The notes: generated by a model not told the origin, from the sequence alone. A DNA stretch of 64,000 bases from Minisyncoccia bacterium (GCA_041742965.1 JBGTNQ010000012.1:1379-65378), one strand, 5' to 3'; positions 8,576 through 51,570 are shown, counted from the first letter of the stretch. A program made the numbers and translations.

Positions 8576-8647
8576 AAATAATTTTGATAGTTAATTTATA
8601 CCATGAAACAGGTATTCTGCTATTTCTAACGGGATTCATAAAACAAA

Positions 8648-9655: not shown

Positions 9656-9666
9656 ATTTATAATTT

Positions 9667-10305
9667 TTATTTATACCAGCTCGTGTACCAACCTTGCATC
9701 TGCTGTATTTCTGCCGTCTGTGATGTCTGAATATCCTTTGCAAGCTGAAGCATCTCGCTACGATTCGTTCCCGATTCAAGCATTCTGGCCATCATAATTG
9801 CCATCTGGTGATGCGGGATCATTTGTTCAATGAATTCTTTGTCGAAATCAGGCGCATTTTTAAGCACATCAATATCCTGAGTGCTTCCCATGTGCATTCC
9901 GCCCTGAGACATCATTCCACCCATTCCAAAGCTGGTACCAACAGGAACACTCTTTCCAAACCAATCGATATACCATGCACGCATTTCCTGATTTTCTGCA
10001 GTCTGAGCTTTGAGGATATCCTCTGCTAGTGTCTTAATCTCCGAACGAGTTGCTTTCTCCAGGGCCAGGTTCGCCATAGCAATTGCTCCATCATGATGCG
10101 GGATCATTTGTTCAATGAAGTGCTTATCGATGGTGGTTGCAACTTGAGTGTTGCCATTTATTCTCTGTTCAGACCCCGAGTTATTTCTCCAGTTCATCAT
10201 TCCGTAACCGCCATATCGCATCATTGGGTAAAACACGACTGCCAATAGAAGACCTATTACGATTCCGCCGATTCCATATAAGATTTTGTTGTTTTGATTG
10301 TTCAT
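9667..10305 (-). CDS. DUF305-family protein (duplicated IPHH motif), putative metal-binding
   Basis: FIEQMIPHHDGAIAMA and FIEQMIPHHQMAIMMA repeats with an N-terminal TM. Confidence 0.7.
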   Translation of the reverse strand: MNNQNNKILYGIGGIVIGLLLAVVFYPMMRYGGYGMMNWRNNSGSEQRINGNTQVATTIDKHFIEQMIPHHDGAIAMANLALEKATRSEIKTLAEDILKAQTAENQEMRAWYIDWFGKSVPVGTSFGMGGMMSQGGMHMGSTQDIDVLKNAPDFDKEFIEQMIPHHQMAIMMARMLESGTNRSEMLQLAKDIQTSQTAEIQQMQGWYTSWYK

Positions 10306-10328
10306 AGTTTTACAGTTAGATTAATAAG

Positions 10329-10529
10329 TTACTCTCCGACATACTTCACAGGATCGGCTGTAAAGTGATTCTTGCAGTGGATAGCGCAAAAGTAGTAGGT
10401 CTTACCTTTGTAATCAGCGCTTGCCTTAATGTTGTCCGCGTCAACTTCCATTCCGCAGACAAGATCAATTGCCACTGTCGGATCAATGAACTTATAGTTT
10501 TTGTTACCCTTAGATTTTTTTGTTTGCAT
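10329..10529 (-). CDS. YHS/TRASH-domain metal-binding protein
   Basis: DLVCGMEVD...GKTYYFCAIHCKNHF matches the YHS motif found in copper-ATPase-associated proteins. Confidence 0.65.
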   Translation of the reverse strand: MQTKKSKGNKNYKFIDPTVAIDLVCGMEVDADNIKASADYKGKTYYFCAIHCKNHFTADPVKYVGE

Positions 10530-10960
10530 ATGTTTATGAGATTAAAGATAGTAAAATAAATCTCATGCAAAGACGGACTATTTTCAAATAACGAAAGCCA
10601 ACGAGTAATTTTCCGAGGACAGCTAAGTTGACGTTCAGGATCATGCCGGACTCGCCACAATATATAATTCACTAAAGAATCGGGTTGTTTTATATAAAGA
10701 AACCCTTCGCTTAAAAATACAGCGAACAGAATGGCAAGCAGGAAGATAAAAGGAATTGATGGGACCACGCTGAAGAATGAGATGAATGCCTGGATGTGAT
10801 GGACCGACATCGCTGTAATGTTTTCCGAACATGGCGTATTGTTTACATCTGAAGCAATACAACCAACCGCATGACTGACCCTGTGATTCATTGAGGTAAA
10901 GCCAAACACCCCTATTACTAGGACGCTTGCAATTATTAGTAATGAGAGGAGTTTTTTCAT
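10346..10960 (-). CDS. small His/Cys-rich membrane protein; 3' end uncertain (overlaps the YHS gene in another frame)
   Basis: The N-terminal ~110 aa look protein-like (signal/TM, MNHRVSHAVGCIASDVNNTPCSENITAMSVHHIQAF, then a TM). The remainder is low-quality. Possible frameshift or fusion with the downstream YHS domain. Confidence 0.35.
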   Translation of the reverse strand: MKKLLSLLIIASVLVIGVFGFTSMNHRVSHAVGCIASDVNNTPCSENITAMSVHHIQAFISFFSVVPSIPFIFLLAILFAVFLSEGFLYIKQPDSLVNYILWRVRHDPERQLSCPRKITRWLSLFENSPSLHEIYFTIFNLINICKQKNLRVTKTISSLIRQWQLILSAEWKLTRTTLRQALITKVRPTTFALSTARITLQPIL

Positions 10961-15515: not shown

Positions 15516-16157
15516 CTACGGTCTAACAGTCACAAACATCCCAGCCTGAAGCCTGCCCATGGTCGGATGGACCGCCTCGGTCTCCGCCATGATTTGAATG
15601 GGCGAATTCGCTCCAGCGGGATTGACGGACCACGCGGTGATCTCGCAAGTCACCGGATTTACCGTGGCGACCGCTGCATTTGTGGAGAAGCAGCGATACC
15701 CAACCGAGATCCCTTCATCCGCAGTAACCTTCACCACCGGAGTGAACTTCTGTCCGACTCGCAAGTCCAGACTGGTCGGGGTGATAGTGATGCCCCTCAA
15801 CTGCGGGCGATTCACCACCACTACCACGACAGTGTCCTTCTTTGCCGGATCGGCGCGCGAGGTGCCAGAAACCCGACCCTTGCCGAGACCAACACCGGTC
15901 ACGAGACCGGTGGAGGAGACCTGAAGCACGCTCGGATTGAGCGAACTCCAGATGACATCCTTGTCAGTAGTGCCAGTGACGACAGCAATGAGCTGAACCG
16001 ATTCGTCCTGATAAATCTGTGACGAGTCAGGCGACAACCTGATGGTGACCGTGGGCTTTGACGGCCCAGTGGGGTCACCGTGGTCATCACAATCGTGCCA
16101 TCTCGTGCACCCCGCGAGGGTGACGAAGAAAAGCAAGAAAACGGTGCGAGCGAGCAT
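15516..16157 (-). CDS. lipoprotein with Big_2 (bacterial Ig-like group 2) domains, in a GC-rich islet
   Basis: Signal plus lipobox MLARTVFLLFFVTLAGC. The tandem domains VTIRLSPDSSQIYQDESVQLIAVVTG...LQVSSTGLVTGVGLGKGRVSGTS are Big_2-like. GC is far above the flanks. Confidence 0.7.
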   Translation of the reverse strand: MLARTVFLLFFVTLAGCTRWHDCDDHGDPTGPSKPTVTIRLSPDSSQIYQDESVQLIAVVTGTTDKDVIWSSLNPSVLQVSSTGLVTGVGLGKGRVSGTSRADPAKKDTVVVVVVNRPQLRGITITPTSLDLRVGQKFTPVVKVTADEGISVGYRCFSTNAAVATVNPVTCEITAWSVNPAGANSPIQIMAETEAVHPTMGRLQAGMFVTVRP

Positions 16158-18873: not shown

Positions 18874-21327
18874 CTACGTCGCTAATAAAAACTCAAAGTC
18901 TTGCGAGGTGAGTTTAATATCGGAACCTGCCTTATACTCTCCTGATATGATACGGTCAGCAATAATCTTTTCTACCGTGTCTTGTATAGCCCTATTTAGA
19001 GGCCTAGCACCAAACTTTTGATCGGTTCCCTTTTCAACCAGAAAGTCTAAAAGTTCTGGGGTAACAGTCAGCGTCATGCCTTTTTCTTTTAGCCTCCACA
19101 TAACGCGTCCGAGCATTTTTTCTGCAACCTTTCGCAATTCTTCGCTCTCTAATGGGTGAAAGAGTATAATCCCATCAAATCTATTTAGAAGTTCCGGTTT
19201 AAATATCCCTTGTTCAATTATTTTTTCTACAATCTCTGTTTTCTTTGCCAAAATATCTCCACCAGATTTCACGGTATCAAATATTTCTGTGCTTGCGGCA
19301 TTTGATGTGGCAATGATGATTGTATTTCGAGCACTTATCTTTCTCCCTGAAGCATCGCTAAACATGCCTTCGTCTAAAATCTGAAGAAATAAATCAAGAA
19401 CTTTTTTGTCAGCTTTTTCAAACTCATCGAGCAAAAGTACACCATATGGTTGTTCTCGGAGCATGCTAGCCAATACTCCCGGTGTATCTGTATCAAATCC
19501 ACCTATGAGACGATTGACGCTATCTTCTGTGCCGTATTCGGACATATCTAGGCGAATGAGAGGAGCTTCAGCACCAAAAAATATTTCCGAGAGAGCCTTT
19601 GTTGTTTCTGTCTTCCCTACACCCGTGGGACCGATGAACAAGAATGAACCTAGGGGCCTGTTTGGATTTGTGAGACCCGAACGCGCTCGACGCAAACTGT
19701 CGCTTATTGCCTGAACAGCCCCCTTCTGACCCACAACTCTTTCATGAAGAAGTTCTTCTAACTTCAAAAGATGGTCCTTTTCTTTTGAAGATATTTCACC
19801 GGTAGGCACCCCTGTCCTAGATTCAACTGCCCGCAATACATCGTCACGAAATATCATATATCCACCACGCTCGTTTGCATATGCTATGGCTTCAATAAGT
19901 AAATCTTCTGCTGTATCAAAAAGTGGCTCGTCAACAAAATATCTTTTTGCACTCTCCACTGATTCAAGAATTGCTAAATAAGAAAAGAAAACATTGTGCT
20001 CCTTTTCAAGAAAAAGGATGGAATCTTCTAGTGTGTGTATGATAGAAAATTCGTCCCCCTCGTCAACTTGTATTTTCTCTACATGTTGCATAAACTCACG
20101 GCGCTTAGAGACAACACGATTGAAATCATCTGTATCTGCGATAGCGATTATTGTCACTTCGGATGATTGTAAAAATCGAACTAAAAGCTCTGAAACATCT
20201 ACTCCCACGGTCTCACCGATATGAATGAAGTTGGCGATATCTGGAATAATGACCACCACATTTCCCGCTCTTGTTGCCTCTCCAAAAAGAGAGAGTAGGA
20301 GACGCTCTAGTGTGGGTGCATCAGTAGATTCGGTAACGAGGTGTTCCTGATCTAATACAAAAAAATGCTTATCGTGTAGCTCTTTTGGAGAAAGCCTACG
20401 CATAATTCTCCTGACTAAACCTTCTACAACCTCCATTTTGCCGACTCCCTCATCACCAACAAGAAGAGCGTTTGACTCAACAGAGCGAGATAAAGCTCTT
20501 TCTAGTTTTTCTATCTCACTAGCATGTAATTCATTTTCTTGATATGGAGAAAATACCAAAGGGGTGCTCATCCTCATCAAGGTATAAGCCTTGCCATAAG
20601 ACCAGTCCCTTCCTAGTCGAGGAAGGGTTTCCAACTTTTCTCTAGACCACCATCTCTCTATAGACATTCTTTTTCTCTCCTCACGTATGGTCCATAGAGC
20701 CGAAGAGATCAATGTTTTTTCACTTATTCCATGGGTAATTAAAAGATGCTCAAACTCTTTATCTCCACGCACGAGGGCCTTTAGATAACTTGAGAAAATA
20801 TCACCAGAGGTATCGAAAATAAAATTTTCTGCGTTTAAAAAGACTTTCCTTTTTGAAGCAAAATCTTTTATTGCCTTTACATCCAATCCAACCCTAAGAA
20901 GTATGTATTTTCCTATATTAGAACGCAGAAAGCCTCCAGTTATGTCTTTACTTTTTGTTTTTGAAATAATGTCTGCGAGTTCAAAAAGGTTTTTCTCTTT
21001 AGTATTATCTTCAAAGGCGTATGAGTAAAAAAAAGCATCTAAAGCAACGATAATAAGAAAGAAGAAAACCGATAGAAAGAAAAGAGCCGTCAACTCGCTT
21101 GCCGAAGTGAAGAATATATTTGAAGAGAGAATAAGTAAAAGAATAGAGAGGGCACCAAGTATTTTTTTGAAATAAAGTCTTGTTTTATGTTCTATAAAAC
21201 TCTCCAAAGCAAAAACTGGCATAAATCTTCGAGTCTTTTGTTTTAGGGTTTCAAAGTTCATTAAGAAAAGATAAATCGTAAAGATATGGCCAATATGAAC
21301 GGAAGGATAATCGGATAAATTATCCAA
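18874..21327 (-). CDS. membrane-anchored ClpA/B/C-family AAA+ ATPase with a degenerate first NBD
   Basis: Two N-terminal TM helices. D1 Walker A reads GDEGVGKM and Walker B reads IIPDI, both degenerate. D2 is intact ([18 protein letters not shown], sensor-2). The start may instead be the internal Met at 21261. Confidence 0.75.
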   Translation of the reverse strand: MDNLSDYPSVHIGHIFTIYLFLMNFETLKQKTRRFMPVFALESFIEHKTRLYFKKILGALSILLLILSSNIFFTSASELTALFFLSVFFFLIIVALDAFFYSYAFEDNTKEKNLFELADIISKTKSKDITGGFLRSNIGKYILLRVGLDVKAIKDFASKRKVFLNAENFIFDTSGDIFSSYLKALVRGDKEFEHLLITHGISEKTLISSALWTIREERKRMSIERWWSREKLETLPRLGRDWSYGKAYTLMRMSTPLVFSPYQENELHASEIEKLERALSRSVESNALLVGDEGVGKMEVVEGLVRRIMRRLSPKELHDKHFFVLDQEHLVTESTDAPTLERLLLSLFGEATRAGNVVVIIPDIANFIHIGETVGVDVSELLVRFLQSSEVTIIAIADTDDFNRVVSKRREFMQHVEKIQVDEGDEFSIIHTLEDSILFLEKEHNVFFSYLAILESVESAKRYFVDEPLFDTAEDLLIEAIAYANERGGYMIFRDDVLRAVESRTGVPTGEISSKEKDHLLKLEELLHERVVGQKGAVQAISDSLRRARSGLTNPNRPLGSFLFIGPTGVGKTETTKALSEIFFGAEAPLIRLDMSEYGTEDSVNRLIGGFDTDTPGVLASMLREQPYGVLLLDEFEKADKKVLDLFLQILDEGMFSDASGRKISARNTIIIATSNAASTEIFDTVKSGGDILAKKTEIVEKIIEQGIFKPELLNRFDGIILFHPLESEELRKVAEKMLGRVMWRLKEKGMTLTVTPELLDFLVEKGTDQKFGARPLNRAIQDTVEKIIADRIISGEYKAGSDIKLTSQDFEFLLAT

Positions 21328-28496: not shown

Positions 28497-29393
28497 ATGG
28501 TAATATTAAATTATATGGAGATATTCAAGAAAATACATAACTTCCTTGGAAATAAAAGTGCTTTTATAGCGGGGCTTTTGGCCGTGCTCATTATCCCTAT
28601 ATCTTTCTCTTTCGCAGAATGGAAAAATGATTCTCTCCCCTATCCGCCTGATTTATATGCAATGTGTTTTGACGGTATAGACAATGACGAAGATGGAAGG
28701 GTGGATCTCGATGACCCTGATTGTCCTAAATGCTACGATAGAATCGACAACGATGGAGACGGTCTAATTGATGAAGAGGATCCTGATTGTCCAAACTATG
28801 TTGGTGAAAAGAAAAAAACTTTCGGAGAAATACTAGGGGCGTTTTTCTCAGATGGCGGATCAGTAAACTCTGGGGGCTCTATTGAAGGTGGTGGACCTAT
28901 CACCTCTGGTGGATCTATTGGAAGTAGTGGTTCTATAGTCTCTTGTAACGAAGTGCGCGCAGAACTTGTAAGGAACCCTGATAAAAATGGACCTAGATAT
29001 ATCTATGAATTTGAATGTGTAAATGAAATTGATTTAGGGGGACGTATACGCTCTGGCAGTTCTATAGACTCTGGAGGAAGAATCAGAAGCGGAGGAAGCA
29101 TTAGCTCTAGTGAAACAGTATCATCCGGTGGTTCTGTACAAAGTGGAGGATCAATAAATTCTAGTGGAGCAATTGGAGAAGGAGGAAATATTTCTTCTGG
29201 AGGGACCATATCAGCTGAAGGAACTATAAATAGTGGTGGTCAAATATCTTCCAGTGGAGCAGTATCATCCGGTGGATATATTCAATACGCCGGTTCTATC
29301 TACTCCGGAGGATCAGTGAGCTCTGGTGGCTCAATAAACTCTGGAGGTTCTGTGGGCTTTGGGGGATCAATTTACTCTGGGGGTACTATATAA
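28497..29393 (+). CDS. secreted protein with Asp-rich Ca-binding-like motifs and tandem SGGSIxS octapeptide repeats
   Basis: N-terminal TM/signal, then DGIDNDEDGRVDLDDPDCP and DNDGDGLIDEEDPDCP (thrombospondin-type-3-like). About 25 copies of a GGSI/GGRI repeat follow. Confidence 0.55.
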   Translation: MVILNYMEIFKKIHNFLGNKSAFIAGLLAVLIIPISFSFAEWKNDSLPYPPDLYAMCFDGIDNDEDGRVDLDDPDCPKCYDRIDNDGDGLIDEEDPDCPNYVGEKKKTFGEILGAFFSDGGSVNSGGSIEGGGPITSGGSIGSSGSIVSCNEVRAELVRNPDKNGPRYIYEFECVNEIDLGGRIRSGSSIDSGGRIRSGGSISSSETVSSGGSVQSGGSINSSGAIGEGGNISSGGTISAEGTINSGGQISSSGAVSSGGYIQYAGSIYSGGSVSSGGSINSGGSVGFGGSIYSGGTI

Positions 29394-34465: not shown

Positions 34466-35164
34466 TCAAACAGGTGTTACGAGCTCCGTGAAAACGACTG
34501 TCCTTTTGGTATAAAGCCTTTGGTCTGCTATCCAATCTCCAGAACAAGTTATTAAGTTGAGGCGAGACTTTGAATCATTACTAAGAAATACATCCTCCGT
34601 TGGAGCATCGTGTTCATATACCACAACATTAACAACCTTAAACTCTAATATTTTTCCTCTTTTATCTATGACCTTCACCACATCGCCCAAAGTTAATTTA
34701 TTTAGATCATAAAAAATGGCCTCAGGAACATTTCTTCCATCTACATGACCGGCAATAACCGCGCTTCCTGGCATCCCAGGGGCTACTCCACGGTTATACC
34801 AAGCTACTTCGGTAAAGTTTGAGGGAATGCCCATATTGCCACTGTCAGTTAACCCCACACTCTGAATCGTAGTATCCACCCCAATCGAGGGTATAAGTAT
34901 TCTCGCTGGTTTATCGGGCGCATCAAAAGAGGAACCGGAATCAATCTTTATAGAAAAATCTTCTGCTACCTCATTATTTAAAAAAGAATCTTGAACCACC
35001 CCAATATAGGGATTTTGCACTACATCAATAGTGGGACCCTTAGCTATCTGACTATGGGTCTGTATTTGAAAAAAAACCGAAAGGCCTGCTGAAAGCAGGC
35101 CTACGCTAAGGAATAGGAGAAATACCCTTTTCCAATAATATAATTTTGTAGAATTGGCCCTCAT
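34466..35164 (-). CDS. sortase (class E/F-like)
   Basis: N-terminal TM, the ILIPSIGVD beta-strand, the active-site His (AGHVDG) and the LITC cysteine motif. Confidence 0.75.
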   Translation of the reverse strand: MRANSTKLYYWKRVFLLFLSVGLLSAGLSVFFQIQTHSQIAKGPTIDVVQNPYIGVVQDSFLNNEVAEDFSIKIDSGSSFDAPDKPARILIPSIGVDTTIQSVGLTDSGNMGIPSNFTEVAWYNRGVAPGMPGSAVIAGHVDGRNVPEAIFYDLNKLTLGDVVKVIDKRGKILEFKVVNVVVYEHDAPTEDVFLSNDSKSRLNLITCSGDWIADQRLYTKRTVVFTELVTPV

Positions 35165-35199
35165 ATCACATAGTAGCGCCGGTTTGGCGGATTACTTCT

Positions 35200-35814
35200 T
35201 TATTGACCGTAACCACCACCAGTATTTGGAAATCCAGGAGTTGTTGGCACAGATACAACATTTGAGAAAACATTTGTTGCACATGTCGCAATAAGCCCAT
35301 TACTAGTAACACTCAGAGTTTTAAGACCTATCGATGCATAGTTTGCAGTAAATCCTGATCCATTTGGATTAGCAATAGTTAGATCTGGAGAAGACCAGGA
35401 ATACTCCCCATTACCACCAGAAGCAGAGAAGGTGGCATTTTGACCCAACATAACACTTTGTACTGCGGGAGAACAAGAGAGATTACCACTAGAAGATTGC
35501 GTGCCCGAAACGATCACATTACACATCGCTGTCTGTCCACCACTAGATACATTTACTTGAAATGTCCCAGTATTTGGATAGCTGACCGCGAATTGAGTAC
35601 CGGAAGAATTTGTAACATTCAAATCCTGACCAGACCAAAAGTAAGTTCCAGTACCACCAGAAGCAGTAAGAACCATTACCTCATTTACATTAACAGAAGA
35701 TGACCCTGTACTACAGCTCAAAGTAGGAGTGGTCTGAGCAAAGCTCAGTGTACCAAAACTCATACCCAAAACCATAATAATAGCCATTAGTAACATAGGT
35801 AGATATTTTTTCAT
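35200..35814 (-). CDS. secreted tandem Ig-like-domain protein, candidate sortase substrate with an atypical C-terminus (...FPNTGGGYGQ)
   Basis: Signal peptide; two ~70-aa repeats (LSCS...GTYFWSGQDL / GEYSWSSPDL); ends PNTGGG with no TM or basic tail. Confidence 0.5.
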   Translation of the reverse strand: MKKYLPMLLMAIIMVLGMSFGTLSFAQTTPTLSCSTGSSSVNVNEVMVLTASGGTGTYFWSGQDLNVTNSSGTQFAVSYPNTGTFQVNVSSGGQTAMCNVIVSGTQSSSGNLSCSPAVQSVMLGQNATFSASGGNGEYSWSSPDLTIANPNGSGFTANYASIGLKTLSVTSNGLIATCATNVFSNVVSVPTTPGFPNTGGGYGQ

Positions 35815-36284: not shown

Positions 36285-38987
36285 TTACTTTACCTTTGCC
36301 CCCGCACCCTTATTGTCTACCAAACTTTCAGCCCAAAGGCTCCCCTTTCTACCTTTCTTAACATCAAAGGTGAACTCACTTCCTTTAACCCCCACAGAGA
36401 TAGTGCCGCCCTTTAGAACTCCCTTAGAGATCATTAGGGAAGCGACAGGGGTAAGAATTTTATTTTGAATTAATCGCTTAAGCGGTCTGGCTCCGTACTG
36501 CGGATTATATCCTTCCTTTGCAAGATGCTTATAGACATCGAGAGATATCTCGAGAGCAATCTCTTTCTCTGCTAATCGAACCTTCACTTGTTCAACTTGA
36601 ATTTTTACAATATCAGCCACAGCGTCCTGCGAGAGAATGTTGAATAGAATTATATCGTCCAGACGATTCAAGAACTCTGGTCGGAAATGGTCTTTTACCG
36701 CATCCATTACTTTAAGTTTCGCATCTTCATAGTCTCCCCTTTCTTCTGTTGAGTCGATAAAGCCAATTCTCTCCATCTTATCTATGAATTGAGCTCCGAT
36801 ATTTGAAGTAAGTATTATGACAGAGTTCTTAAAGTTCACCACGCGTCCCTTGGCATCGGTTAAGCGTCCATTATCAAGAACTTGAAGAAGGATGTTGAAC
36901 ACTTCTGGATGTGCTTTTTCAATTTCATCAAAAAGAATAACAGCATAAGGACGATGACGAACCATTTCAGTCAAAGTGCCACCTTCTTCATGCCCCACAT
37001 ATCCAGGAGGAGCACCAATAAGCTTTGAAACAGCGTGACGCTCCATAAATTCTGACATATCTACACGAATAAGAGCTTTTTCGTCATCAAACATAAACTC
37101 AGCTAAAGCTTTGGTAAGTTCAGTTTTTCCAACTCCCGTAGGACCCAAAAACATAAACGAACCTATGGGTCTATTTGGATCAGAAATTCCAGCCCTAGAA
37201 CGCTTGATGGTATCTGAAATCTTCTGGACAGCTTCATCTTGACCAATAATGCGTCTTTTTAAAAAGTCTTCCATTTGAGAAAGTTTCTCTGCTTCTTCAG
37301 CCAACATTCTAGACACAGGGATACCTGTCCAACGGGATACAATATCTGCAATATCTTCTTCAGTAATTTCTTCCTTTAGAATTCTACGAGAGCTTTGGAG
37401 TCTTTTTAGTCTTTTCATCTTTTGTTCTAAATCTCGTTCTAGGGTCGGGATTTTTCCATAGCGAATTTCAGCTGCCAGAGATAAATCTGAACGCGCTTCA
37501 GCAGACTCAGCCTCTAAGCGAAGTTTTTCAAGTTCCTTTTTAAATGTTTTTATGTCATTTACAGCCTCCTTTTCGTTTTTCCATTTAAGCTCGAGTTCGG
37601 ATGTTTTTTCTTTAAAATCGGCAATAATCTCTGTGATTTCTTTTATGCGAGCCTTTGTCTTTGGGTTCTTGGAGGTGCCAACTTCTTTTTTCAAGGCCTC
37701 TTTTTCAATCTCGAGCTTCATTATTTTGGCGTGCGTTTCCTCAAGTACTGGGGGCATATTTTCAAGTGAAATTTTGAGATGTGAAGATGCTTCATCAATC
37801 AAATCCACCGCTTTGTCTGGTAAAAACCTATCTGTAATATATCGGGAAGAAAGGTTAACTGCTGACACAATAGCGTCATCGGTAATCCTAACTCCATGAT
37901 AAAGCTCATATCTTTCTTTAAGCCCTCGTAGAATAGTGATGGCGTCTTCCTGAGAGGGTTCATTCACATACACCGGCTGAAAACGCCTTGTAAGAGCTGG
38001 ATCCTTTTCAATATGTTTCTGATATTCCTTAAGGGTGGTTGCGCCTATGGCTCTAAGTTCACCTCGAGCAAGTGCCGGTTTCAACATATTAGAGGCATCT
38101 AAAGATCCGTCAGCGGCACCAGCACCAACAATAGTATGGATTTCATCTATAAAGAGAATGATCTTTCCATCAGATCTTTCTATCTCTTTCAAAATATTTT
38201 TTAATCTCTCCTCAAACTCTCCTCGATACTTTGTACCGGCAATCAAAAGCCCCAGATCCAAAGAAACCAATTCTTTTTCACGAATAGATTCTGGAACGTT
38301 TCCATTTGCCATACGAACAGCAAGACCCTCAACAATAGCAGTCTTTCCTACCCCAGCTTCTCCTATAAGGATTGGATTATTTTTTGTCCTCCTGGCGAGA
38401 ATCTGAACGATTCTAGAAATCTCATTATCTCTCCCAATTACTGGATCAAGTTTATTTTGACCAGCCAATTTAGTTAAACTTCTAGTGTATTTTAAAATAT
38501 TTTTAGTTCTTTTTCCTTCTTTATTTCCTTCTAGGTTTTTAGAAGATTTCAATTCATCTATCACCTTCACAACAGTAGCTCTATCAATTTTGAAACGAGA
38601 GAGAAGTTCCTTTGCTGGACTTTTAATCTCGAGCAAAGAGACAAACATGTGTTCAGTAGAAGCAAACTCATCATTTAAGCCATCGGCAACCTTCAAACTG
38701 TTATCAATAATCTGAGCCAGTTCTGGAGTTAAAAAAATCTGATATGAAGGTGCCATCGTAGCAGAAGATTCTGGGGTCTCAATCGCCTCAAGAAGGAGGT
38801 CTGTTAAAAGAATTGTATCGACCTCAAGCCGATCCAAGATTGAAGCAACCATACTCTCTTCTTGCAGTATCAAAGCCCCAAAAAGATGCATTGGACTAAC
38901 ATGGTTTTGACCACGCTCAATAGCTAGCTCGTGAGCTTTTTTTATGGCTTCTTTGGCTTTGGTTGTAAATCTCTGAAATGGTGGCAT
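36285..38987 (-). CDS. clpB: chaperone ClpB
   Basis: Clp N-domain, NBD1 ([22 protein letters not shown]), a long coiled-coil M-domain, NBD2 ([18 protein letters not shown]). Start taken at MPPFQRF. Confidence 0.9.
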
Positions 38988-39041
38988 ATGGGTGTATAAA
39001 ATACAATAATTGTCCTCTAGAGTCAAACAAGTCTAACAAAA

Positions 39042-43524: not shown

Positions 43525-43645
43525 TATTGTAAGTCTGGTAGAATAAGAGATGCCCAAAAGATGTGGTGCTAAAGCTTCGTGAACGGGACAGAGAGGTGTA
43601 AAACTTTAAGTTATGATATTGATAAGGCGTGGTGGCCAAGTGGTA

Positions 43646-43717
43646 AGGCGAAGCTCTGCAAAAGCTTTATTCACGGGTTCGATTCCCGTCCACGCCTCAA
43701 GTAAAAAGTATGACTTT
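43646..43717 (+). tRNA. tRNA-Cys (anticodon GCA)
   Basis: Acceptor GGCGTGG/CCACGCC, anticodon stem AAGCT/AGCTT with loop CTGCAAA, T-arm GGGTTCGATTCCCG. Confidence 0.8.
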
Positions 43718-43727
43718 AGTGTGATAT

Positions 43728-43870
43728 CTTTTACTTTGATGAGGACGGAAGTATGCAAATTTATTTGCATACTTAGGGAATCGAAAGGCGCAGTGATATT
43801 TTGTGAGTTCACAAAATTACGAGCCGTGGTCACGACCGAGCCGAGCGACGGCGAGGTGAGAGTTGTGACC
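43728..43870 (+). repeat. element E3 (~143 nt) between 27-nt direct repeats of the tRNA-Cys 3' end (43701..43727 and 43871..43897)
   Basis: gattcccgtccacgcctcaagtaaaag is duplicated. The insert carries gggaatcgaaagg, ttttgtgagttcacaaaa and gtggtcacgacc and ends gagttgtgacc. Confidence 0.65.
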
Positions 43871-43945
43871 GATTCCCGTCCACGCCTCAAGTAAAAGTGT
43901 GGCTTTGTAAGACATCTTTTACTTAGTTGGTGTGAAGAAATATAT

Positions 43946-44028
43946 GCCCGGGTGGTGGAATGGTATACACGGCGGACTTAAAATCCTCTGGCCGCAAGGC
44001 CATGTGAGTTCGAGTCTCACCCCGGGCA
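43946..44028 (+). tRNA. tRNA-Leu (anticodon TAA, tentative)
   Basis: Acceptor GCCCGGG/CCCGGGC, long variable arm, anticodon loop CTTAAAA with one mismatch in the anticodon stem, T-arm GAGTTCGAGTCTC. Confidence 0.65.
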
Positions 44029-44034
44029 CAATAT

Positions 44035-44107
44035 GCGCCCATAGCTCAGTTGGTAGAGCTGCTCCCTCTTAAGGAGAAGGTCGTAGGTTCAAATCCTACT
44101 GGGCGCA
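44035..44107 (+). tRNA. tRNA-Lys (anticodon CTT)
   Basis: Acceptor GCGCCCA/TGGGCGC, D-arm TAGCTCAGTTGGTAGAGC, anticodon loop CTCTTAA, T-arm GTAGGTTCAAATCCTAC. Confidence 0.8.
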
Positions 44108-44379
44108 CAGAAGCTACAGCAACCTGCCCTGCGGCAGGTTTTGTGCTTCTGTGCGGACCGGAGCCATGTTTTGTGACCACACAAAACAGACGAGGTGGGG
44201 TCGAGAAATTTTGTGAGCGACGGCGAACAAAATATTCGTGACCACAAAGGACGCAATTGGCATGATCAAGATTTTTCCGTCAGGAAAAATACTTGTGACC
44301 ACAATCCTGTGCGAACCATACTTCCCCTCTCACAAACAATACTTGTGACCCGAGTTAAATATGATAAAGTATTTCTCAT
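44108..44379 (+). repeat. E4: tandem array of four short units, each ending in ...GTGACC, with AT-stem hairpins, between tRNA-Lys and tRNA-Leu
   Basis: GTGACC at 44173, 44238, 44295 and 44345, each followed by acacaaaa / acaaagg / acaatcc (tRNA-trailer-like). Internal cgaggtggggtcgag, ttttgtgaccacacaaaa and atttttccgtcaggaaaaat. Confidence 0.6.
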
Positions 44380-44461
44380 GCTGGGGTGGCGGAATTGGTA
44401 TACGCGCTAGTCTTAGGAACTAGTGGAGAAATCCATAGGAGTTCAAGTCTCCTCCCCAGCA
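44380..44461 (+). tRNA. tRNA-Leu (anticodon TAG)
   Basis: Acceptor GCTGGGG/CCCCAGC, anticodon stem CTAGT/ACTAG with loop CTTAGGA, long variable arm, T-arm GGAGTTCAAGTCTCC. Confidence 0.8.
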
Positions 44462-44466
44462 CAAAC

Positions 44467-44595
44467 GAAAGTAGTGAGTTTGTGCTCTAGGCGCATTTTT
44501 TGCTTTGCAAAAAGAGCAGAGACTTGAAGGCCGGAGTCCGCCTTGGGCGGACGAGGCGGGGTCGCGGACTTTTTCAGCAGAAAAAGATCTGTGAC
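44467..44595 (+). repeat. element E5 (129 nt) between 22-nt direct repeats of the tRNA-Leu(TAG) 3' end (44445..44466 and 44596..44617)
   Basis: aagtctcctccccagcacaaac is duplicated. The insert carries ggagtccgccttgggcggacgaggcggggtcgcggac and ctttttcagcagaaaaag and ends atctgtgacc. Confidence 0.65.
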
Positions 44596-44666
44596 CAAGT
44601 CTCCTCCCCAGCACAAACTCACTACTTTCGTTTGTGCTGTATAAAATTTGACTTTTTGCTTGTTTT

Positions 44667-45915: not shown

Positions 45916-47385
45916 GTGATGAACCCGTTCCTAAGAAACCAACTCCGGCTTTCTTCAAAGAAAGCCTTGGAGTCGGCGACTCGCAAAATCAGTGGTTTCT
46001 TCGTCGCGGCCAAGAAAGCGATCGGTCGCCCACTCACTTGGACATGGACCAAAACTAAGGAGGTAGGAGTGAGTATCAAAAAAGTAGTTGGTGGACTCTT
46101 CAGCTCTGCTGGTCTGTATGTCAAAGATCAGTGGAAGAAGAATGCTCGACGAGTAGTTGAGGTGGTGTTGTATTTCATCATCATCCCAATACTCCTCTTC
46201 ACCTTCTACGTGAATTTGGGAGTCTCTATCAAAGAGCTTCCTTTCGCGAAGATTGCGTTGTACGGAGGAATCGGACTCGCTGTTGCCCTCTTGCTCTGGC
46301 TCAGTTGGAGCAAGAGGAATAAGTTAGTCAGCGCAGTTCGAGGTATTGGGAGCAGTGGAGGTGGTGGAAATAGCGGTGACGCTATTTCAAGATTCTTCAC
46401 TTCTGTTGCCGTGTTTCTTGTCTTCAATGCCGCCTACTGGGCGATGTTGAGTCAAATCCACGGCGACTGGGGATCAGAGTATTTTACTGGCACGTGGTTA
46501 TGGTCTCCAGCCTTCATTGTGCTGGCCGTGGCAACACTTGTCATGGGGTTCTCCTACGGGAGGGCAAACAAGCAGTTCGGATTCCTCCGAGTGCCGGCGG
46601 CGATAATGATTACCGTGACGGTAATCATGGCAATGCTTCCTGGTATCGGCGGGCCAGTACGGCCCAAGATACCGGGTTTCGCCGAAGCTTCGGCGGTGAA
46701 TTATACCCTGCCGAGGAAGCTAGCGGATGCGCCCTGGATAGTCTATCAGGGGCCGGTCAAGGACTCGGTCCTTGCTGCCTTCCCCAGCGATACCACTATG
46801 TGGAATATCGCTGCAGCCGAAAGTGGCTTCCGTCAGTTTGATAGTGACGGAGTCCCTCTTCCGAACGACGAGGGGTCAAGCGCTGTGGGAGTCTTCCAGA
46901 TTATGGAAGGTCTCCATGGTCGCGACTGCGGAGCCGACCTCGATATCCATACCATTTCGGGGAATATCGCTTGCGCGAAAATTCTCCGAGAGCGTAATGG
47001 GTACCACGACTGGGCAAGTTCTGCCTGGAAGTGGCGCGACTGGTACGCCACCGAGCCAGAGCACTGGTCATTCGACAGGGCTCCAGAGTACCTTCTGGCA
47101 AGGAGTGCTCTCGGTGACGAGGTCGTGATCGTCGACGCCCCTGTGGGCAGTGAGAGTATTGCTGTCCACACCAATGGACGGAAGTACTGTTGGTCGGCTG
47201 ATGGCGAGGGAGTGCCATACCTCGTCATCGACGATGCTGGTCAGACAGCCACCATCAATCCGGGTGAGAGCGTTAAGCTCACTCGGTATGCGCGGTGGTT
47301 GAAGTTCCAATCACTTGGAGAAGTTCCCCTGAAGATTGTTTTCAGGCGGAGACCTCCTGGGGTCATGAGTTGCAGTACCGCCTGA
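45916..47385 (+). CDS. polytopic membrane protein with a lytic-transglycosylase (SLT-like) domain, in a GC-rich island
   Basis: Five or more TM helices, then NIAAAESGFRQF...GSSAVGVFQIMEGLHG, which matches the SLT catalytic Glu-Ser and GLMQ motifs. High local GC. Confidence 0.55.
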   Translation: MMNPFLRNQLRLSSKKALESATRKISGFFVAAKKAIGRPLTWTWTKTKEVGVSIKKVVGGLFSSAGLYVKDQWKKNARRVVEVVLYFIIIPILLFTFYVNLGVSIKELPFAKIALYGGIGLAVALLLWLSWSKRNKLVSAVRGIGSSGGGGNSGDAISRFFTSVAVFLVFNAAYWAMLSQIHGDWGSEYFTGTWLWSPAFIVLAVATLVMGFSYGRANKQFGFLRVPAAIMITVTVIMAMLPGIGGPVRPKIPGFAEASAVNYTLPRKLADAPWIVYQGPVKDSVLAAFPSDTTMWNIAAAESGFRQFDSDGVPLPNDEGSSAVGVFQIMEGLHGRDCGADLDIHTISGNIACAKILRERNGYHDWASSAWKWRDWYATEPEHWSFDRAPEYLLARSALGDEVVIVDAPVGSESIAVHTNGRKYCWSADGEGVPYLVIDDAGQTATINPGESVKLTRYARWLKFQSLGEVPLKIVFRRRPPGVMSCSTA

Positions 47386-47405
47386 TTTTGGGCGGTGAAA
47401 AACGA

Positions 47406-47476
47406 GGGCGACGCGAAAGCGTCGCCCTTTTCTCATACCAAAACCCCCTCCGCCTTGGGCGGAGGGGGTTTTGTAT
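47406..47476 (+). terminator. two tandem Rho-independent terminators
   Basis: gggcgacgc-gaaa-gcgtcgccc-ttttctc, then aaccccctccgcc-ttg-ggcggagggggtt-ttgtatt. Confidence 0.75.
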
Positions 47477-47482
47477 TCCAAA

Positions 47483-47764
47483 CTAATCAAGAAGTCTGTC
47501 TATATATTGCGGTTGACTCGCCCGAAGTCCAAATGTATTGAGAATTATATTTATAATTCCAAAAACAGAAACCATAATAATCATGCCTATAATCCCCCAC
47601 TTCATATGACTCTTGCCCTTCTCTCTTGCACTAGGGTCGTCACCTGATGCAACGAAAGAGAATATTCCCCAGAAAAAGAAGAGAATTGCTACAGCGAAAC
47701 CAAACACAATCAGCGGATTGAGTATGATTTCCGCTATACGAGCCAAAAATTCAGATATGGACAC
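47483..47764 (-). CDS. small two-TM membrane protein, paralog 1 of 6 (TrbC/VirB2-pilin-like)
   Basis: Core LIVFGFAVAILFFFWGIFSFVASGDDPSAREKGKSHMKWGIIGMIIMVSVFGIINI matches the shared family pattern. Confidence 0.5.
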   Translation of the reverse strand: MSISEFLARIAEIILNPLIVFGFAVAILFFFWGIFSFVASGDDPSAREKGKSHMKWGIIGMIIMVSVFGIINIILNTFGLRASQPQYIDRLLD

Positions 47765-47778
47765 GGAACAAATTTAAA

Positions 47779-48159
47779 TTAATTAGTCTGAAGATTTCCA
47801 ACACCTGGCGTAGTGCCTAAATTCTGACTTTGCTGAATACCCAAAGCATTACCAACAAAGCTAACAAGACCCCATACAGAAACCATCACAAACAAAGTTA
47901 CAACTCCCCATATCATCATGTTTTTACCTTTTGCTGCATCTACTTCATCTCCAGCTGCAAGGACAAACTTAGCCAATCCCCAGAAAAAGAAGAGAAGAGC
48001 CAAAGCTACTACTAGTGGCAACAAAAGATCAACAATCCTCCCAATAGACCTGAAAAATGTCTCAATATTTGTCAGCTGTGGACCAGCAGTACCAGCCATA
48101 GTTAACAAAGGAAGAGCGAAAACTGCTAAACTACCTATAAATTTCCTTATCATATTCAA
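47779..48159 (-). CDS. small two-TM membrane protein, paralog 2 (signal peptide + VirB2-like core)
   Basis: LLLPLVVALALLFFFWGLAKFVLAAGDEVDAAKGKNMMIWGVVTLFVMVSVWGLVSFV. Confidence 0.5.
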   Translation of the reverse strand: MNMIRKFIGSLAVFALPLLTMAGTAGPQLTNIETFFRSIGRIVDLLLPLVVALALLFFFWGLAKFVLAAGDEVDAAKGKNMMIWGVVTLFVMVSVWGLVSFVGNALGIQQSQNLGTTPGVGNLQTN

Positions 48160-48256
48160 TAAATTAATATTAAAACCTATAAATTTCTTTCTAATATACC
48201 TACTAATAGTATCACGAAAAAATCGAAAAGACAGGCATATGTGGAAAACAAAAAAA

Positions 48257-48550
48257 TCAATTATTAACCTTTGGGTTTAATTGAGAGGGAGCATTACCTC
48301 CAATGAGGAAAATAACATCTTCTTGTATAAACCTTACAATTCCCCAAATAGACACCATAACGAATAAAACAACAATCCCCCACACCATCTTATTTTTTCC
48401 CTCTTGCTTCTTCTTCACATCATCACTCTCTTTTATAAATATAGCCAAACTCCAAAAGAAAAAGAGTAGAGCCACAGCCACAGAAAGTGGGAGTAGTAAA
48501 TTCACCAAGCTTCCAAATGCCGATATTAAATCTTGAATATTTGAAATCAT
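48257..48550 (-). CDS. small two-TM membrane protein, paralog 3
   Basis: LLLPLSVAVALLFFFWSLAIFIKESDDVKKKQEGKNKMVWGIVVLFVMVSIWGIVRFI. Confidence 0.5.
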   Translation of the reverse strand: MISNIQDLISAFGSLVNLLLPLSVAVALLFFFWSLAIFIKESDDVKKKQEGKNKMVWGIVVLFVMVSIWGIVRFIQEDVIFLIGGNAPSQLNPKVNN

Positions 48551-48933
48551 GGACTTGTTGTAGGAAATTGAGGAATAGTACTAATAGGTTGACCAAACAG
48601 GTCACCAGTAATGAGATTTATTATTCCTATAAACGAAACCATTACAAACAAAGCCAAAATACCCCATTTCATAAGACTCTTCCCCTCTTCAATAACCTTC
48701 TCATCCCCAGAGCCCCTGATAACTTTCGCCAAACCCCAGAAAAATACTAGGAGAGTGGCTCCAACAATCACAGGTAGAAGACTATTAATAAAACTTGTAA
48801 ATAAGCAGAGAGTTTCTGCAAAGGTGGTTGGTGGTAATGGCACATTAGCCGGACAGGCAGCAAAAACAGGCACTGGTAGAAATACCGAGAAAGAAAGAAT
48901 TAGAATTAAAAATAGAGAAGAGAAACGAATCAT
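48547..48933 (-). CDS. small two-TM membrane protein, paralog 4 (signal peptide)
   Basis: LLPVIVGATLLVFFWGLAKVIRGSGDEKVIEEGKSLMKWGILALFVMVSFIGIINLI. Shares a 4-nt overlap with its neighbour. Confidence 0.5.
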   Translation of the reverse strand: MIRFSSLFLILILSFSVFLPVPVFAACPANVPLPPTTFAETLCLFTSFINSLLPVIVGATLLVFFWGLAKVIRGSGDEKVIEEGKSLMKWGILALFVMVSFIGIINLITGDLFGQPISTIPQFPTTSP

Positions 48934-49367
48934 GCGCGAAGTTGATTAATAGTAGTCTCAATGACTTGAGCTATAACCCAAGCGCCAAGCAATATTGCCG
49001 TACCTATGGCGGCGTTTGTAAAGGCTGCCTTGCCCTCCCCAATCTGCTTTTCATCCCCACGAGCCGTGACTAAAAGAAAACCTGCATACATTATATAGAG
49101 AACAGCTATTACACCCCCTAGAGGTAGAACTATGTTGTTTATTACAAGAGATATAAATTCATAAAGAGTTGAGGCTCCACGAACTGGGTTTTGAATCTTT
49201 ATTGTTGTAACTACGGGATTTGGACCCTCACCTTCTCCTGGATCTAATCCGGGGTCAGGACCCTCAGACTCACCACCAAGAAGTAAGATTGGTGAAAAGA
49301 GAAACAAAAAAACTAAAATATGTATGCTACTTCTTTTCAATTTCATTATATTCATATTATATATCAA
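48930..49367 (-). CDS. small two-TM membrane protein, paralog 5 (signal peptide, Gly/Pro/Glu linker)
   Basis: IVLPLGGVIAVLYIMYAGFLLVTARGDEKQIGEGKAAFTNAAIGTAILLGAWVIAQVI resembles the VirB2 pattern ILGP...AVL.I..G..wM.G. Confidence 0.5.
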   Translation of the reverse strand: MIYNMNIMKLKRSSIHILVFLFLFSPILLLGGESEGPDPGLDPGEGEGPNPVVTTIKIQNPVRGASTLYEFISLVINNIVLPLGGVIAVLYIMYAGFLLVTARGDEKQIGEGKAAFTNAAIGTAILLGAWVIAQVIETTINQLRA

Positions 49368-49757
49368 TTATTCAAGAATCGAATAACCATCATCAAGCAA
49401 AGCTGATAAAATCAAATCCACAATGAGCCAAGCAGCGAGCATAAATATAAGCCCCTTTGCCACCTTTACAAAAACATCCTTTCCTCTGTCTCTCTGACCT
49501 TGGTTACCTCCAGCGGTCATAATGAGAAAACCCGCCCAAGCGAAAGAAAGAGCTGCAAGCGGTATAGCTATTAAAATTAGAAAATTGATAAAATTCTGAG
49601 CAAGTTCTATGAGTTTGTTGTATGAACATGGACCAAGGGCAGAACCTGGGGCATCATCACAAACGATTAGATTTTCCCCAGCCATAACCCCAACAGTACC
49701 TGGTAGCGGAGTGGCCAATAAACAAAGCATTATAAAACTAAATAATATTTTTTTCAT
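49368..49757 (-). CDS. small two-TM membrane protein, paralog 6 (signal peptide)
   Basis: LILIAIPLAALSFAWAGFLIMTAGGNQGQRDRGKDVFVKVAKGLIFMLAAWLIVDLI. Confidence 0.5.
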   Translation of the reverse strand: MKKILFSFIMLCLLATPLPGTVGVMAGENLIVCDDAPGSALGPCSYNKLIELAQNFINFLILIAIPLAALSFAWAGFLIMTAGGNQGQRDRGKDVFVKVAKGLIFMLAAWLIVDLILSALLDDGYSILE

Positions 49758-51046
49758 TATCTTTGCAAAAGATTTTGGAGTTCTTGATGAGCCCTAGTAA
49801 TGGCTTGTTCAAACCTCGCCCTTCCTCCGGTTATGGTCTCTATGAGATCTTTGAATATCCGACCAGTGGCAACCGCATCAGGGTCACGCCAAGCTTTGGA
49901 CCACAAAGCGTTATCAAAAAAAACTTGAGAAAAACCGTCAGAAGGTCTCTGTAAAAGCAAATCTCTTCTGGCAGGAGGTATTTGAAGATTTTGTGAAAAA
50001 ATAATAGAGACTTCTGGAGTTGTTAGGTTCACAATTGCTGAATAGGCCCCAGAGACATTGGAGGTGTTTCTCACTATAGCTAAAGCATGCATTTTGCCAA
50101 AGGTTGTCTTCCTGAGATTAGTGCGAGACTGTGGCAAAGAAGCAACATCAAAATTTAGATTTGGGTTTTTGAGATTAATTGCCTTAAGCTCTGAAGCGAA
50201 ACCGAAGTAAACAGCCAAGTCGCCGGATGTAAACATATTTTGAGAAAATGGGAGAGAGCGATTCCAAGAATAAAAAGGTTTGGCTGGATTTGAAAACTCG
50301 GTATAGAAAGTCAGGGCCGCAGAAGCCGGTGCAACTGGTAAGTTGAAATTGTCTAATAGTGCACTATAAAAACGATTTCCATCAGACGAAGTGATGGCTC
50401 CACCAGCTTGAAATATAAGAGTGCTTAAAATCTCTTTTGCATTTGCTACATTAGAATATTCTCCAAGGGCGACTGCCGATTTAACAATATTGAATGCTCC
50501 GTCTTTCTGAGTAAGAGTTTGTGATAATGTATAAAATTCATCCCAAAATGCCGGAGGGTTTGCTAAGCTAGCATTAGTGAAAATATCTCTATTCCAATAC
50601 ATAACAAGCGGATCAACAAGCATCGGCAAAGCCAAAATACCATCGCCTTGCAAAAATATTTCTCCCTCTTCTATGAACACATTTTTAAAATCTCGCTCTG
50701 AATACGCCGTATAAGGTATAGGGAAAATCCTACTACTATTCCTTAAAATATCTTCGTGTGGCAAAAAAACAATATCTGGGCCACGGCCATCAGCTAAAGC
50801 TTCAACAAACTGTTGCTGGAATGTGTTGGGGGATTTTTCAACATAAGATATCTGTATCAATTTATCTTTTGAAAGTGTCGTCTCAAAAAAGGAGGCATTC
50901 CATACTTGTTGGGAAACGGTCCCCCAAACTGTCACACTAACTTTCTCTCCACTGTCTCCACGAAAAAAGGCAAAAGCAAAAACTCCAATGATTATAAAAA
51001 CACCGAAGGCTCCAGTAAGAACTAATTGGAATTTGGACATATTCAT
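49757..51046 (-). CDS. membrane-anchored extracellular solute-binding protein (SBP family 1-like)
   Basis: N-terminal TM, then GRGPDIVFLPHEDI...LALPMLVDPLVMYWNRDIF..., typical of MalE-like SBPs. No permease or ATPase genes are adjacent. Confidence 0.65.
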   Translation of the reverse strand: MNMSKFQLVLTGAFGVFIIIGVFAFAFFRGDSGEKVSVTVWGTVSQQVWNASFFETTLSKDKLIQISYVEKSPNTFQQQFVEALADGRGPDIVFLPHEDILRNSSRIFPIPYTAYSERDFKNVFIEEGEIFLQGDGILALPMLVDPLVMYWNRDIFTNASLANPPAFWDEFYTLSQTLTQKDGAFNIVKSAVALGEYSNVANAKEILSTLIFQAGGAITSSDGNRFYSALLDNFNLPVAPASAALTFYTEFSNPAKPFYSWNRSLPFSQNMFTSGDLAVYFGFASELKAINLKNPNLNFDVASLPQSRTNLRKTTFGKMHALAIVRNTSNVSGAYSAIVNLTTPEVSIIFSQNLQIPPARRDLLLQRPSDGFSQVFFDNALWSKAWRDPDAVATGRIFKDLIETITGGRARFEQAITRAHQELQNLLQR

Positions 51047-51570
51047 GACTTTGTAAAAATTAATCCGTAATGATGCTTGCCGGCTGATATGTTTTTTTGG
51101 AAAACGAAGCCTACTTCAGAAAATACTTTTTTTGCATCATCTTCAGAAAAAACCGCATCTGAATGAGGTCCAATGCCTCCAAAAGAATCCGTCCAATCAA
51201 TCAAAAGAAGTCTACCTTTGGATTCCAAAACCCTAAATGCCTCTTTTGCTATAGCTGACCTATCTCTAACTTGAAACATTAAGTTTGATATAACTATAAC
51301 CTTTACCGCCTCGTCTTTGAGCCTACTTCCCAAGGGCTTTTCCAAGTCTCCCCAGACAACTTCAATATTTGATAAACCTTGCCTTGTGGCTTCATTTTTA
51401 ATCTTTGAGAGCAATTCTTTTTGAATATCTATGGCATAGACCGTACCGCCGTCACCCACGACCTTGGCCATAGCTAAACTATAGTGCCCAGAACCTGAAC
51501 CGAAGTCGGCGACACTTTCTCCAAGATTGATGCCGAATTGTTCTATATTTTTGATTGGGTCAGAAAACAT
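51043..51570 (-). CDS. class I SAM-dependent methyltransferase
   Basis: Motif I VADFGSGSGHYS and motif II VYAIDI. Confidence 0.75.
   Translation of the reverse strand: MFSDPIKNIEQFGINLGESVADFGSGSGHYSLAMAKVVGDGGTVYAIDIQKELLSKIKNEATRQGLSNIEVVWGDLEKPLGSRLKDEAVKVIVISNLMFQVRDRSAIAKEAFRVLESKGRLLLIDWTDSFGGIGPHSDAVFSEDDAKKVFSEVGFVFQKNISAGKHHYGLIFTKS

Follow-up and report, generated by a model that had tools for sequence, protein, structure and literature searches.

Here we analyze an array of six tandem pilin-like genes, located in a 64,000-nt stretch of DNA from a Minisyncoccia bacterium (GCA_041742965.1 JBGTNQ010000012.1:1379-65378; hereafter the window), and compare it with the arrays of VirB2-like pilin genes already described in Patescibacteria. 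In a survey of 3,035 Patescibacteria genomes with the profiles PF18895 and PF04956, VirB2-like pilins were found in 1,948 VirB4-containing assemblies, and in 1,135 of the 1,948 they were near virB4 (Quinonero-Coronel et al. 2025, PMC12102498). The same survey reported 441 VirB2-like arrays of 2-11 genes, with a mean identity of ~25% and a maximum of 54%, which were most abundant in Microgenomatia and Saccharimonadia; in Paceibacteria, virB4 is usually found near dnaA/dnaN (PMC12102498). In Southlakia epibionticum, six tandem PF18895 genes (SEML1_0014-0019), all of them essential as judged by transposon sequencing (Tn-seq), are located beside the VirB4-like SEML1_0008 (Wang et al. 2023, PMC10633639). 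A 2025 review presents the type IV secretion systems (T4SSs) of Patescibacteria as the only monoderm ones with VirB2-like pilins, and puts forward, as a speculation, a pilus conduit (PMC12857230). Few features specific to Patescibacteria have been shown to be essential for the epibiotic lifestyle, and VirB2-like arrays are one of them, with essentiality demonstrated in Southlakia only; monoderm T4SSs are normally devoid of pilins.

The array of the window resembles that of Southlakia ML1 in that six tandem, divergent PF18895 genes (encoding proteins of ~100-185 aa in Southlakia), some of them with weak PF04956 matches, are carried by a Patescibacterium. However, the Southlakia array adjoins T4SS genes (VirB4-like, PrgI, VirB6-like and lysozyme/peptidase genes) and is experimentally essential, whereas the array of the window, from the class Paceibacteria, lies >10 kb from any T4SS ATPase, in a predicted operon with genes for a solute-binding protein (SBP) and a methyltransferase. 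The array also fits the surveyed ones in size and identity (six genes, 23-53%), and its six consecutive genes fall within the definition of an array as at least two tandem or one-gene-apart PF18895/PF04956 genes in a Patescibacteria genome. In contrast, the text of the survey (PMC12102498) holds no link to an SBP, no fixed paralogue order and no position-wise orthology; the word "solute" has 0 occurrences in it, and none of the papers found mentions an SBP coupled to pilin arrays. The array type is already published, and the novelty is modest: the fixed order of the paralogues, the coupling to the SBP and the separation from virB4.

The array belongs to a group of eight consecutive minus-strand genes that spans positions 51570-47483, formed by the methyltransferase, the SBP and the six pilin-like open reading frames (ORFs), which were numbered p1 to p6 outward from the SBP (Table 1). 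An earlier note, made from the sequence of this DNA, had described six minus-strand ORFs of 93-145 aa, several of which overlap by 4 nt or abut, placed downstream of a methyltransferase and a membrane-anchored SBP, and both the ORF list and the measured junctions agreed with this description in all the details checked. The methyltransferase and SBP genes overlap by 4 nt and the SBP and p1 genes by 1 nt, p1 and p2 abut (0 nt), overlaps of 4 nt are found again between p2 and p3 and between p3 and p4, and gaps of 97 nt and 14 nt separate p4 from p5 and p5 from p6, respectively. The six pilin genes, the methyltransferase and the SBP apparently constitute one transcription unit, i.e., a predicted operon. 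Beyond p6, a minus-strand hairpin (47428-47405) that has a stem of 10 bp with a T-run after it and a perfect 16-bp inverted repeat (47439-47473) are likely to act as bidirectional terminators. A promoter scan was uninformative (16 sites vs 10.6 +/- 3.0 in shuffles).

The six-way alignment of the ORFs confirmed the shared core that had been claimed before, which reads LPL..A.ALLFFFWGL...GDE...EGK..M.WG...LFVMVS.WG, with L28, G50 and K51 invariant. The best BLAST identity of each paralogue within the array was 36-53%, and the identity to p6 in the six-way alignment was 23-38%. When a hidden Markov model (HMM) of the family was run against the 292 window ORFs of at least 45 aa, precisely the six ORFs were recovered, and no seventh member was detected among them at E<=10. 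Hydropathy analysis revealed two hydrophobic helices, as anticipated in the earlier note, in all six paralogues and an N-terminal hydrophobic leader in four of them (p1, p2, p3 and p5), so that p4 (97 aa) and p6 (93 aa) have the two helices and no leader. It is p2 that carries the Gly/Pro/Glu spacer and the VLPLGGVIAVLYIMYAG motif. A helical hairpin, for which the earlier note had suggested multimer modelling, is present in the AlphaFold2 model of p5: in this model (mean predicted local distance difference test, pLDDT, 77) helices span residues 3-20, 30-67 and 72-105, i.e., a leader helix followed by a helical hairpin.

The assignment of these proteins to the T4SS_pilin family PF18895 is solid. 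The gathering cut-off of 26.6 bits was passed by five of the six ORFs (33.6-44.3 bits); p3 scored 23.6 bits, below this cut-off, and is evidently a paralogue despite that score, as judged from its match to the family HMM (E=3.7e-40) and its 48% BLAST identity to p4. With the NCBIfam profile NF045849 (Mbov_0395 pilin-like conjugal transfer protein; cut-off 40 bits), p6 reached 41.3 bits and the other five paralogues 12.5-32.8 bits. Both profiles lend support to the VirB2/TrbC-type, pilin-like nature put forward in the earlier note. Among the database homologues of p5, the 120 listed of the 143 found all carried PF18895, and their sources were Zambryskibacteria, Minisyncoccia or Parcubacteria. 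When the family profile was compared with the PDB, the top sequence match was the pKM101 VirB2 pilin TraM (8cw4), with a marginal E value of 1.4e-3 over the leader and the first helix. Homology to the classical VirB2 is plausible, though weak at the sequence level. The proteins share with the diderm VirB2/TrbC/TraA pilins (PF04956; pKM101 TraM, 8cw4) the leader, the two hydrophobic helices, the short charged loop and a weak sequence similarity, but they fall below the PF04956 threshold, their host is monoderm, they are six paralogues instead of one major pilin, and their genes lie outside a virB operon. Likewise, the Mbov_0395 family (NF045849) of the integrative and conjugative elements of Mycoplasma consists of small two-helix proteins of a monoderm conjugation system, and p6 scores above its cut-off; however, Mbov_0395 is encoded by one gene copy on a mobile element. 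In the window, by contrast, the array is chromosomal, comprises six genes and sits among housekeeping genes, with five paralogues below that cut-off.

The conservation of the locus was then analyzed among relatives. An SBP-anchored search of contigs, with one genome per species, yielded at least 569 matching stretches, and 80 loci were retained from them. The gyrA-(methyltransferase)-SBP-pilin array locus recurs in these 80 species-level Paceibacteria genomes, and in all of these loci in which the contig extends beyond the SBP the pilin array is found directly 3' of it, on the same strand and mostly at a distance of -3 to +25 nt; in many relatives the SBP is preceded by an orthologue of the methyltransferase. 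In three relatives fetched via p5 homologues we observed gyrA, the methyltransferase, the SBP, 6-7 PF18895 genes, and convergent SLT_3-like and Band_7-like genes. Complete arrays contain 5-8 pilin copies, with a mode of 6, which is the copy-number comparison that had been proposed for this array. The order 1-2-3-4-5-(5)-6 is seen in 56 complete arrays, with p1 and p2 first and p6 last, and with p3-p5 duplicated or lost. Furthermore, the best match of each window paralogue was the paralogue at the same position in other genomes. Between the window and the close relative L003, identity was 92% for GyrA, 76% for the SBP, 68% for the methyltransferase and 63-89% for the pilins. These results showed that conservation across the Zambryskibacteria/Taylorbacteria-like Paceibacteria clade extends to the locus as a whole, to its copy number and to the order of its genes. 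The paralogues are ancient position-specific orthologues in a fixed order that diverge about as fast as the SBP, and the array is old, ordered and under ordinary purifying selection. The fixed order, the position-specific orthology and the SBP-like divergence argue for six non-redundant subunits and against a rapidly varying surface repertoire. Many of the records analyzed (L010-L089) are titled "uncultured Candidatus Saccharibacteria bacterium", yet their SBP and pilins group with Zambryskibacteria and Paceibacteria, and the title looks like a bulk taxonomic default, not like a true assignment to Saccharibacteria.

Some of the orthologue groups have features of their own. In p1, two Cys residues are each at least 90% conserved among 70 orthologues. 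This pair sits in the extracellular N-terminal part and suggests a disulfide-bonded loop, which is absent from the other paralogues. The p2 group is recognized by an NP motif and by YAGF..VTA.GN. The spacer that follows its leader is of low complexity, Gly/Pro/Glu-rich in the window and Thr/Pro-rich (TAPTNTTT repeats) in the relative L006 (8708-9184); it is likely to be an exposed linker, possibly glycosylated. The p3 protein is 86% identical to its same-position orthologue in L003. Its reading as a lipoprotein (VFAAC) was rejected, because the leader and the Cys are missing from most p3 orthologues, and an apparent split of p3 in L002 does not make it a pseudogene, given that the DNA is identical to that of L003 and the split reflects a difference in gene calling. 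The p5 group is the most frequently duplicated, and the p6 group is characterized by ILNPLI and has no leader.

We favor the interpretation, with a probability of about 0.6, that the six genes encode a divergent VirB2-like pilin set of a Patescibacteria T4SS whose other genes are elsewhere on the chromosome, and that their products build a VirB4-dependent heteromeric pilus or conduit for host interaction. The family, topology, operon structure and conservation documented above are the starting point; for assembly, VirB4 dependence and function we reason by analogy with VirB2/TraA pilins and with the Southlakia array. Each subunit would insert in the cytoplasmic membrane as a hairpin whose charged G-K loop faces the cytoplasm, and the leaders would be cleaved where present. 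A VirB4-driven T4SS encoded elsewhere would then extract the subunits and polymerize a short pilus or a wall-spanning conduit, the lysozyme-like protein encoded next to the array may open the cell wall locally, and the conduit would mediate contact or exchange with the host cell. The SBP of the predicted operon may capture or sense a host-derived solute, and PrgZ, the plasmid-borne binding protein of the enterococcal pCF10 conjugation system, would offer a parallel. By analogy with solved conjugative pili, the invariant inter-helix G-K would presumably face the lumen or a lipid head group. Since the paralogues are ancient position-specific orthologues in a fixed order, a fixed heteromeric set, e.g., one major subunit accompanied by initiator, tip or adaptor subunits, is most likely, and a repertoire for antigenic variation is less likely. 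VirB4 itself is recorded for 6 of 8 locus-carrying relatives (Table S1 of PMC12102498).

Several results weigh against this interpretation. The VirB4, VirD4 (type IV coupling protein, T4CP), VirB6 and PrgI families were not found among the scanned window ORFs, as the earlier note had already reported for VirB4, VirB6 and the T4SS ATPase. No T4SS genes were found in the 8.5 kb past the right end or the ~0.9 kb past the left end of the window, and in none of the 80 loci was a T4SS ATPase found among the ORFs of at least 450 aa located up to 10 kb from the array. As no T4SS ATPase or channel gene was found near the array, its link to a T4SS rests on the naming of the family and on other lineages. 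In addition, the TrbC/VirB2 family PF04956, against which the earlier note had proposed to check each paralogue, has a cut-off of 27.9 bits, which was not reached by p2 (19.8 bits, E=9.5e-4) or p1 (15.9 bits, E=0.016), and the Pfam search gave no PF04956 match for the other four paralogues (p3-p6). The orthologue profile of p1 and p2, compared with the PDB, retrieved no solved VirB2, and only spurious PsaF matches were obtained. A Foldseek search of the PDB with the p5 hairpin model yielded insignificant helical matches only (best E=2.3), a search that is uninformative because a two-helix hairpin is too simple for a fold search. The remaining 2 of the 8 locus-carrying relatives are listed without VirB4, both as incomplete scaffold-level metagenome-assembled genomes (MAGs) of 468 and 603 kb. 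Finally, no pilus of such proteins has been seen in any Patescibacterium (PMC12857230).

The separation from T4SS genes leaves room for a membrane complex that works independently of any T4SS, in which the co-transcribed SBP would take part, e.g., as a docking or translocation platform for a host solute captured by the SBP, with no VirB4 machine. Such a complex would account for the strict same-strand adjacency of the SBP and the array in all loci that reach far enough, for the lack of VirB4/T4CP within 10 kb of the array in 80 relatives, for the two relatives listed without VirB4, and for the orphan condition of the SBP, as no ABC permease was found among the scanned window ORFs nor near the SBP in three relatives. 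We consider it unlikely, because PF18895 genes sit inside the T4SS clusters of other Patescibacteria, where they are essential together with VirB4, because VirB4 is present in six of the eight relatives and the two without it are incomplete MAGs, and because two-helix subunits of this type occur in no known transporter. In a more speculative proposal, the ordered pilin set, physically and perhaps functionally uncoupled from the T4SS cluster, may form with the SBP a device for capturing host nutrients or signals, the SBP being the receptor module of a heteromeric pilus or conduit. This proposal seems to us somewhat less probable than the complex that does without a T4SS; a partnership of this sort between an SBP and pilins has not been described in any secretion system. 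A different possibility is that the proteins are T4SS channel components that stay at the membrane or wall without ever building an extended pilus. In some systems, substrate transfer requires VirB2 in a way that does not depend on pilus formation. Pili are generally lacking in the T4SSs of monoderm bacteria, and Patescibacteria are monoderm (PMC12102498, PMC10633639); moreover, two of the six paralogues have no leader and no pilus has been observed. Conversely, the leaders and the variable extracellular N-terminal spacers of p1-p3 and p5 suggest exposed parts, and no result obtained here tells a channel from a pilus; we regard the channel as improbable, to about the same degree as the T4SS-independent complex.

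The conservation data bear also on the idea, advanced in the earlier note, that the expanded array provides surface variation, and on a repertoire for antigenic variation or host-range switching in general. Arrays of this kind have been speculated to help adaptation to different host strains (PMC12102498), the copy number of p3-p5 differs between species (5-8 genes per array), and the low-complexity N-terminal spacer of p2 differs between species as well. The idea nevertheless fits the locus poorly: same-position orthologues occur in a fixed order in distant relatives, the pilins have diverged from those of L003 to an extent similar to the SBP, and neither repeats nor switching elements were apparent in the array, its sole direct repeat being a 20-nt coding match. 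The tandem virB2 genes of Bartonella and Anaplasma are likewise present as several divergent copies (cited in PMC12102498), but those copies are thought to serve antigenic variation, whereas the fixed order and the cross-species orthology of the array analyzed here argue for non-redundant roles. A variable repertoire must be rated as quite unlikely. Even further down, and very improbable, is a role of the six proteins outside secretion, as holins, phage membrane proteins or envelope-stress proteins, a placement that the earlier note had named as the outcome that would overturn its reading. Small two-helix membrane proteins are common among holins, and p3 gave a lone weak match to Holin_SPP1 (E=0.17). 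This apart, no holin, phage or stress family of Pfam was significant, no PHROGs family was matched at E<=0.01 by any of the six ORFs, the PF18895 matches are consistent, and the chromosomal housekeeping context is kept across species.

The locus leaves the current picture of the system unchanged, and it points to a defined multi-subunit structure and not to a variable repertoire. In a large clade of Paceibacteria the array is a core chromosomal feature, with six order-conserved subunit types and an invariant orphan SBP partner. The six orthologue groups, the SBP and the lysozyme-like neighbour offer concrete targets to model in structure, to follow in expression studies and to profile phylogenetically against VirB4.

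Table 1. Positions and main characteristics of the genes and hairpins of the pilin-array locus, counted from the first letter of the window.
Feature	Position	Strand	Description
Methyltransferase, class-I S-adenosylmethionine-dependent, 175 aa	51043..51570	-	Pfam Methyltransf_31/25/11, E down to 5e-19; apparent first gene of the predicted operon
SBP, membrane-anchored, orphan, 429 aa	49757..51046	-	Pfam SBP_bac_1 E=3e-17, SBP_bac_8 E=8e-13; N-terminal hydrophobic anchor
p1, 129 aa	49368..49757	-	Leader, conserved Cys pair, two hydrophobic helices; PF18895 33.6 bits
p2, 145 aa from a TTG start (141 aa as called in L001)	48930..49367	-	Leader, Gly/Pro/Glu-rich spacer, NP motif, two helices; PF18895 38.4 bits
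p3, 128 aa	48547..48933	-	Leader with lipobox-like VFAAC at its end, two helices; PF18895 23.6 bits
p4, 97 aa	48257..48550	-	Two helices, no leader (hydropathy); PF18895 37.8 bits
p5, 126 aa (124 aa from ATG)	47779..48159	-	Leader and helical hairpin; PF18895 44.3 bits
p6, 93 aa	47483..47764	-	No leader, ILNPLI motif; PF18895 43.4 bits
Two G+C-rich hairpins	47405..47473	.	Between the convergent transcription units, 3' of p6
Multi-pass membrane protein, 489 aa, putative C-terminal lysozyme-like (SLT_3-like) domain	45916..47385	+	Convergent neighbour; candidate VirB1-like wall-opening enzyme
Membrane-anchored SPFH/Band_7-like protein, 375 aa	44667..45794	+	Convergent neighbour; Pfam Band_7 E=2.2e-4, below the gathering cut-off

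Two genes convergent with the array encode a 489-aa multi-pass membrane protein and an SPFH-like protein (Table 1). The earlier note had seen in the first of them an SLT-domain protein that could be VirB1-like, and this view gains weak support. The 489-aa protein has no Pfam match of its own. A motif NIAAAESGF...GVFQI is visible in it, the profile of its orthologues matches C-type lysozymes of the PDB (E=2.4e-4), and PF18896 (SLT_3) is reported as weak in the L004/L005 orthologue and reaches 26.4 bits, vs a gathering cut-off of 27, in that of L012; the orthologue of L006 is devoid of the lysozyme-like domain. Four concordant lines of sequence evidence point, weakly, to a lysozyme-like protein. 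The syntenic orthologues of the SPFH-like protein in three relatives are also weak on Band_7.

Both genes differ from their surroundings in composition. Their G+C content is 49-54%, vs ~40% in neighbouring genes, and their G+C content at third codon positions (GC3) is 0.52 (SPFH-like) and 0.60 (lysozyme-like), vs about 0.32-0.36 in neighbouring window genes. The same contrast was observed in the syntenic orthologues of three relatives, and the 3 kb downstream of the array exceeded the upstream genes in G+C content in 44 of 45 species-level loci (median difference, +5.2 points). In addition, this pair is the fastest-diverging part of the locus, with 39% and 42% identity between the window and L003, vs 92% for GyrA. 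A GC-rich island acquired by insertion at the adjacent tRNA cluster was considered and rejected, since both genes are syntenic and GC-rich in the relatives too, and the GC-rich island of the earlier note is not an island. As the syntenic orthologues share the GC contrast, the pair is not a recent insertion; it is conserved, compositionally odd and rapidly evolving.

Near-identical hairpins (18/20 nt, TCCGCCTTGGGCGGA...) at 44537-44556 and 47449-47468 flank the GC-rich pair exactly, and may be similar terminators or remnants of cassette boundaries. Four tRNA genes (Cys, Leu-taa, Lys and Leu-tag) are clustered at 43626-44640, with partial duplications of tRNA 3' ends: an exact 27-nt copy of the tRNA-Cys end is found at 43870-43896, and the end of tRNA-Leu(tag) is copied at 44596-44618. 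In addition, 44457-44486 and 44610-44639 form a perfect inverted repeat of 30 nt. The tRNA-end copies and the inverted repeat look like scars of past integration or excision.

The rest of the window corresponds to an ordinary Patescibacteria chromosome, with genes for GyrA, topoisomerase I, DprA, ParB, MiaA, SerRS, alanine racemase and two Clp ATPases, together with IscS, IF-2, FtsA/FtsZ, a copper-resistance cluster and sortases. The copper/heavy-metal cluster (8177-13254, minus strand) encodes a cupredoxin-like protein, a DsbD_2 membrane protein fused to an HMA domain, a DUF305 protein, a 204-aa ORF and a P-type ATPase with HMA. The Clp/Hsp100-type ATPases are encoded at 18874-21327 and 36285-39026. 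The second is a full ClpB-like protein, and in the first (817 aa) matches are limited to the second AAA module and the D2-small domain, its N-terminal 550 residues being divergent. Likely surface or secreted proteins are an acidic double-disulfide repeat protein (28497-29393), a sortase beside an intimin/Ig-like protein (34466-35814), a Big_2 protein (15516-16157) and a 919-aa LCAT-like lipase/esterase (2428-5187). Just past the right end of the window (L008), a second sortase is accompanied by CAP-domain proteins and a 1360-aa protein.

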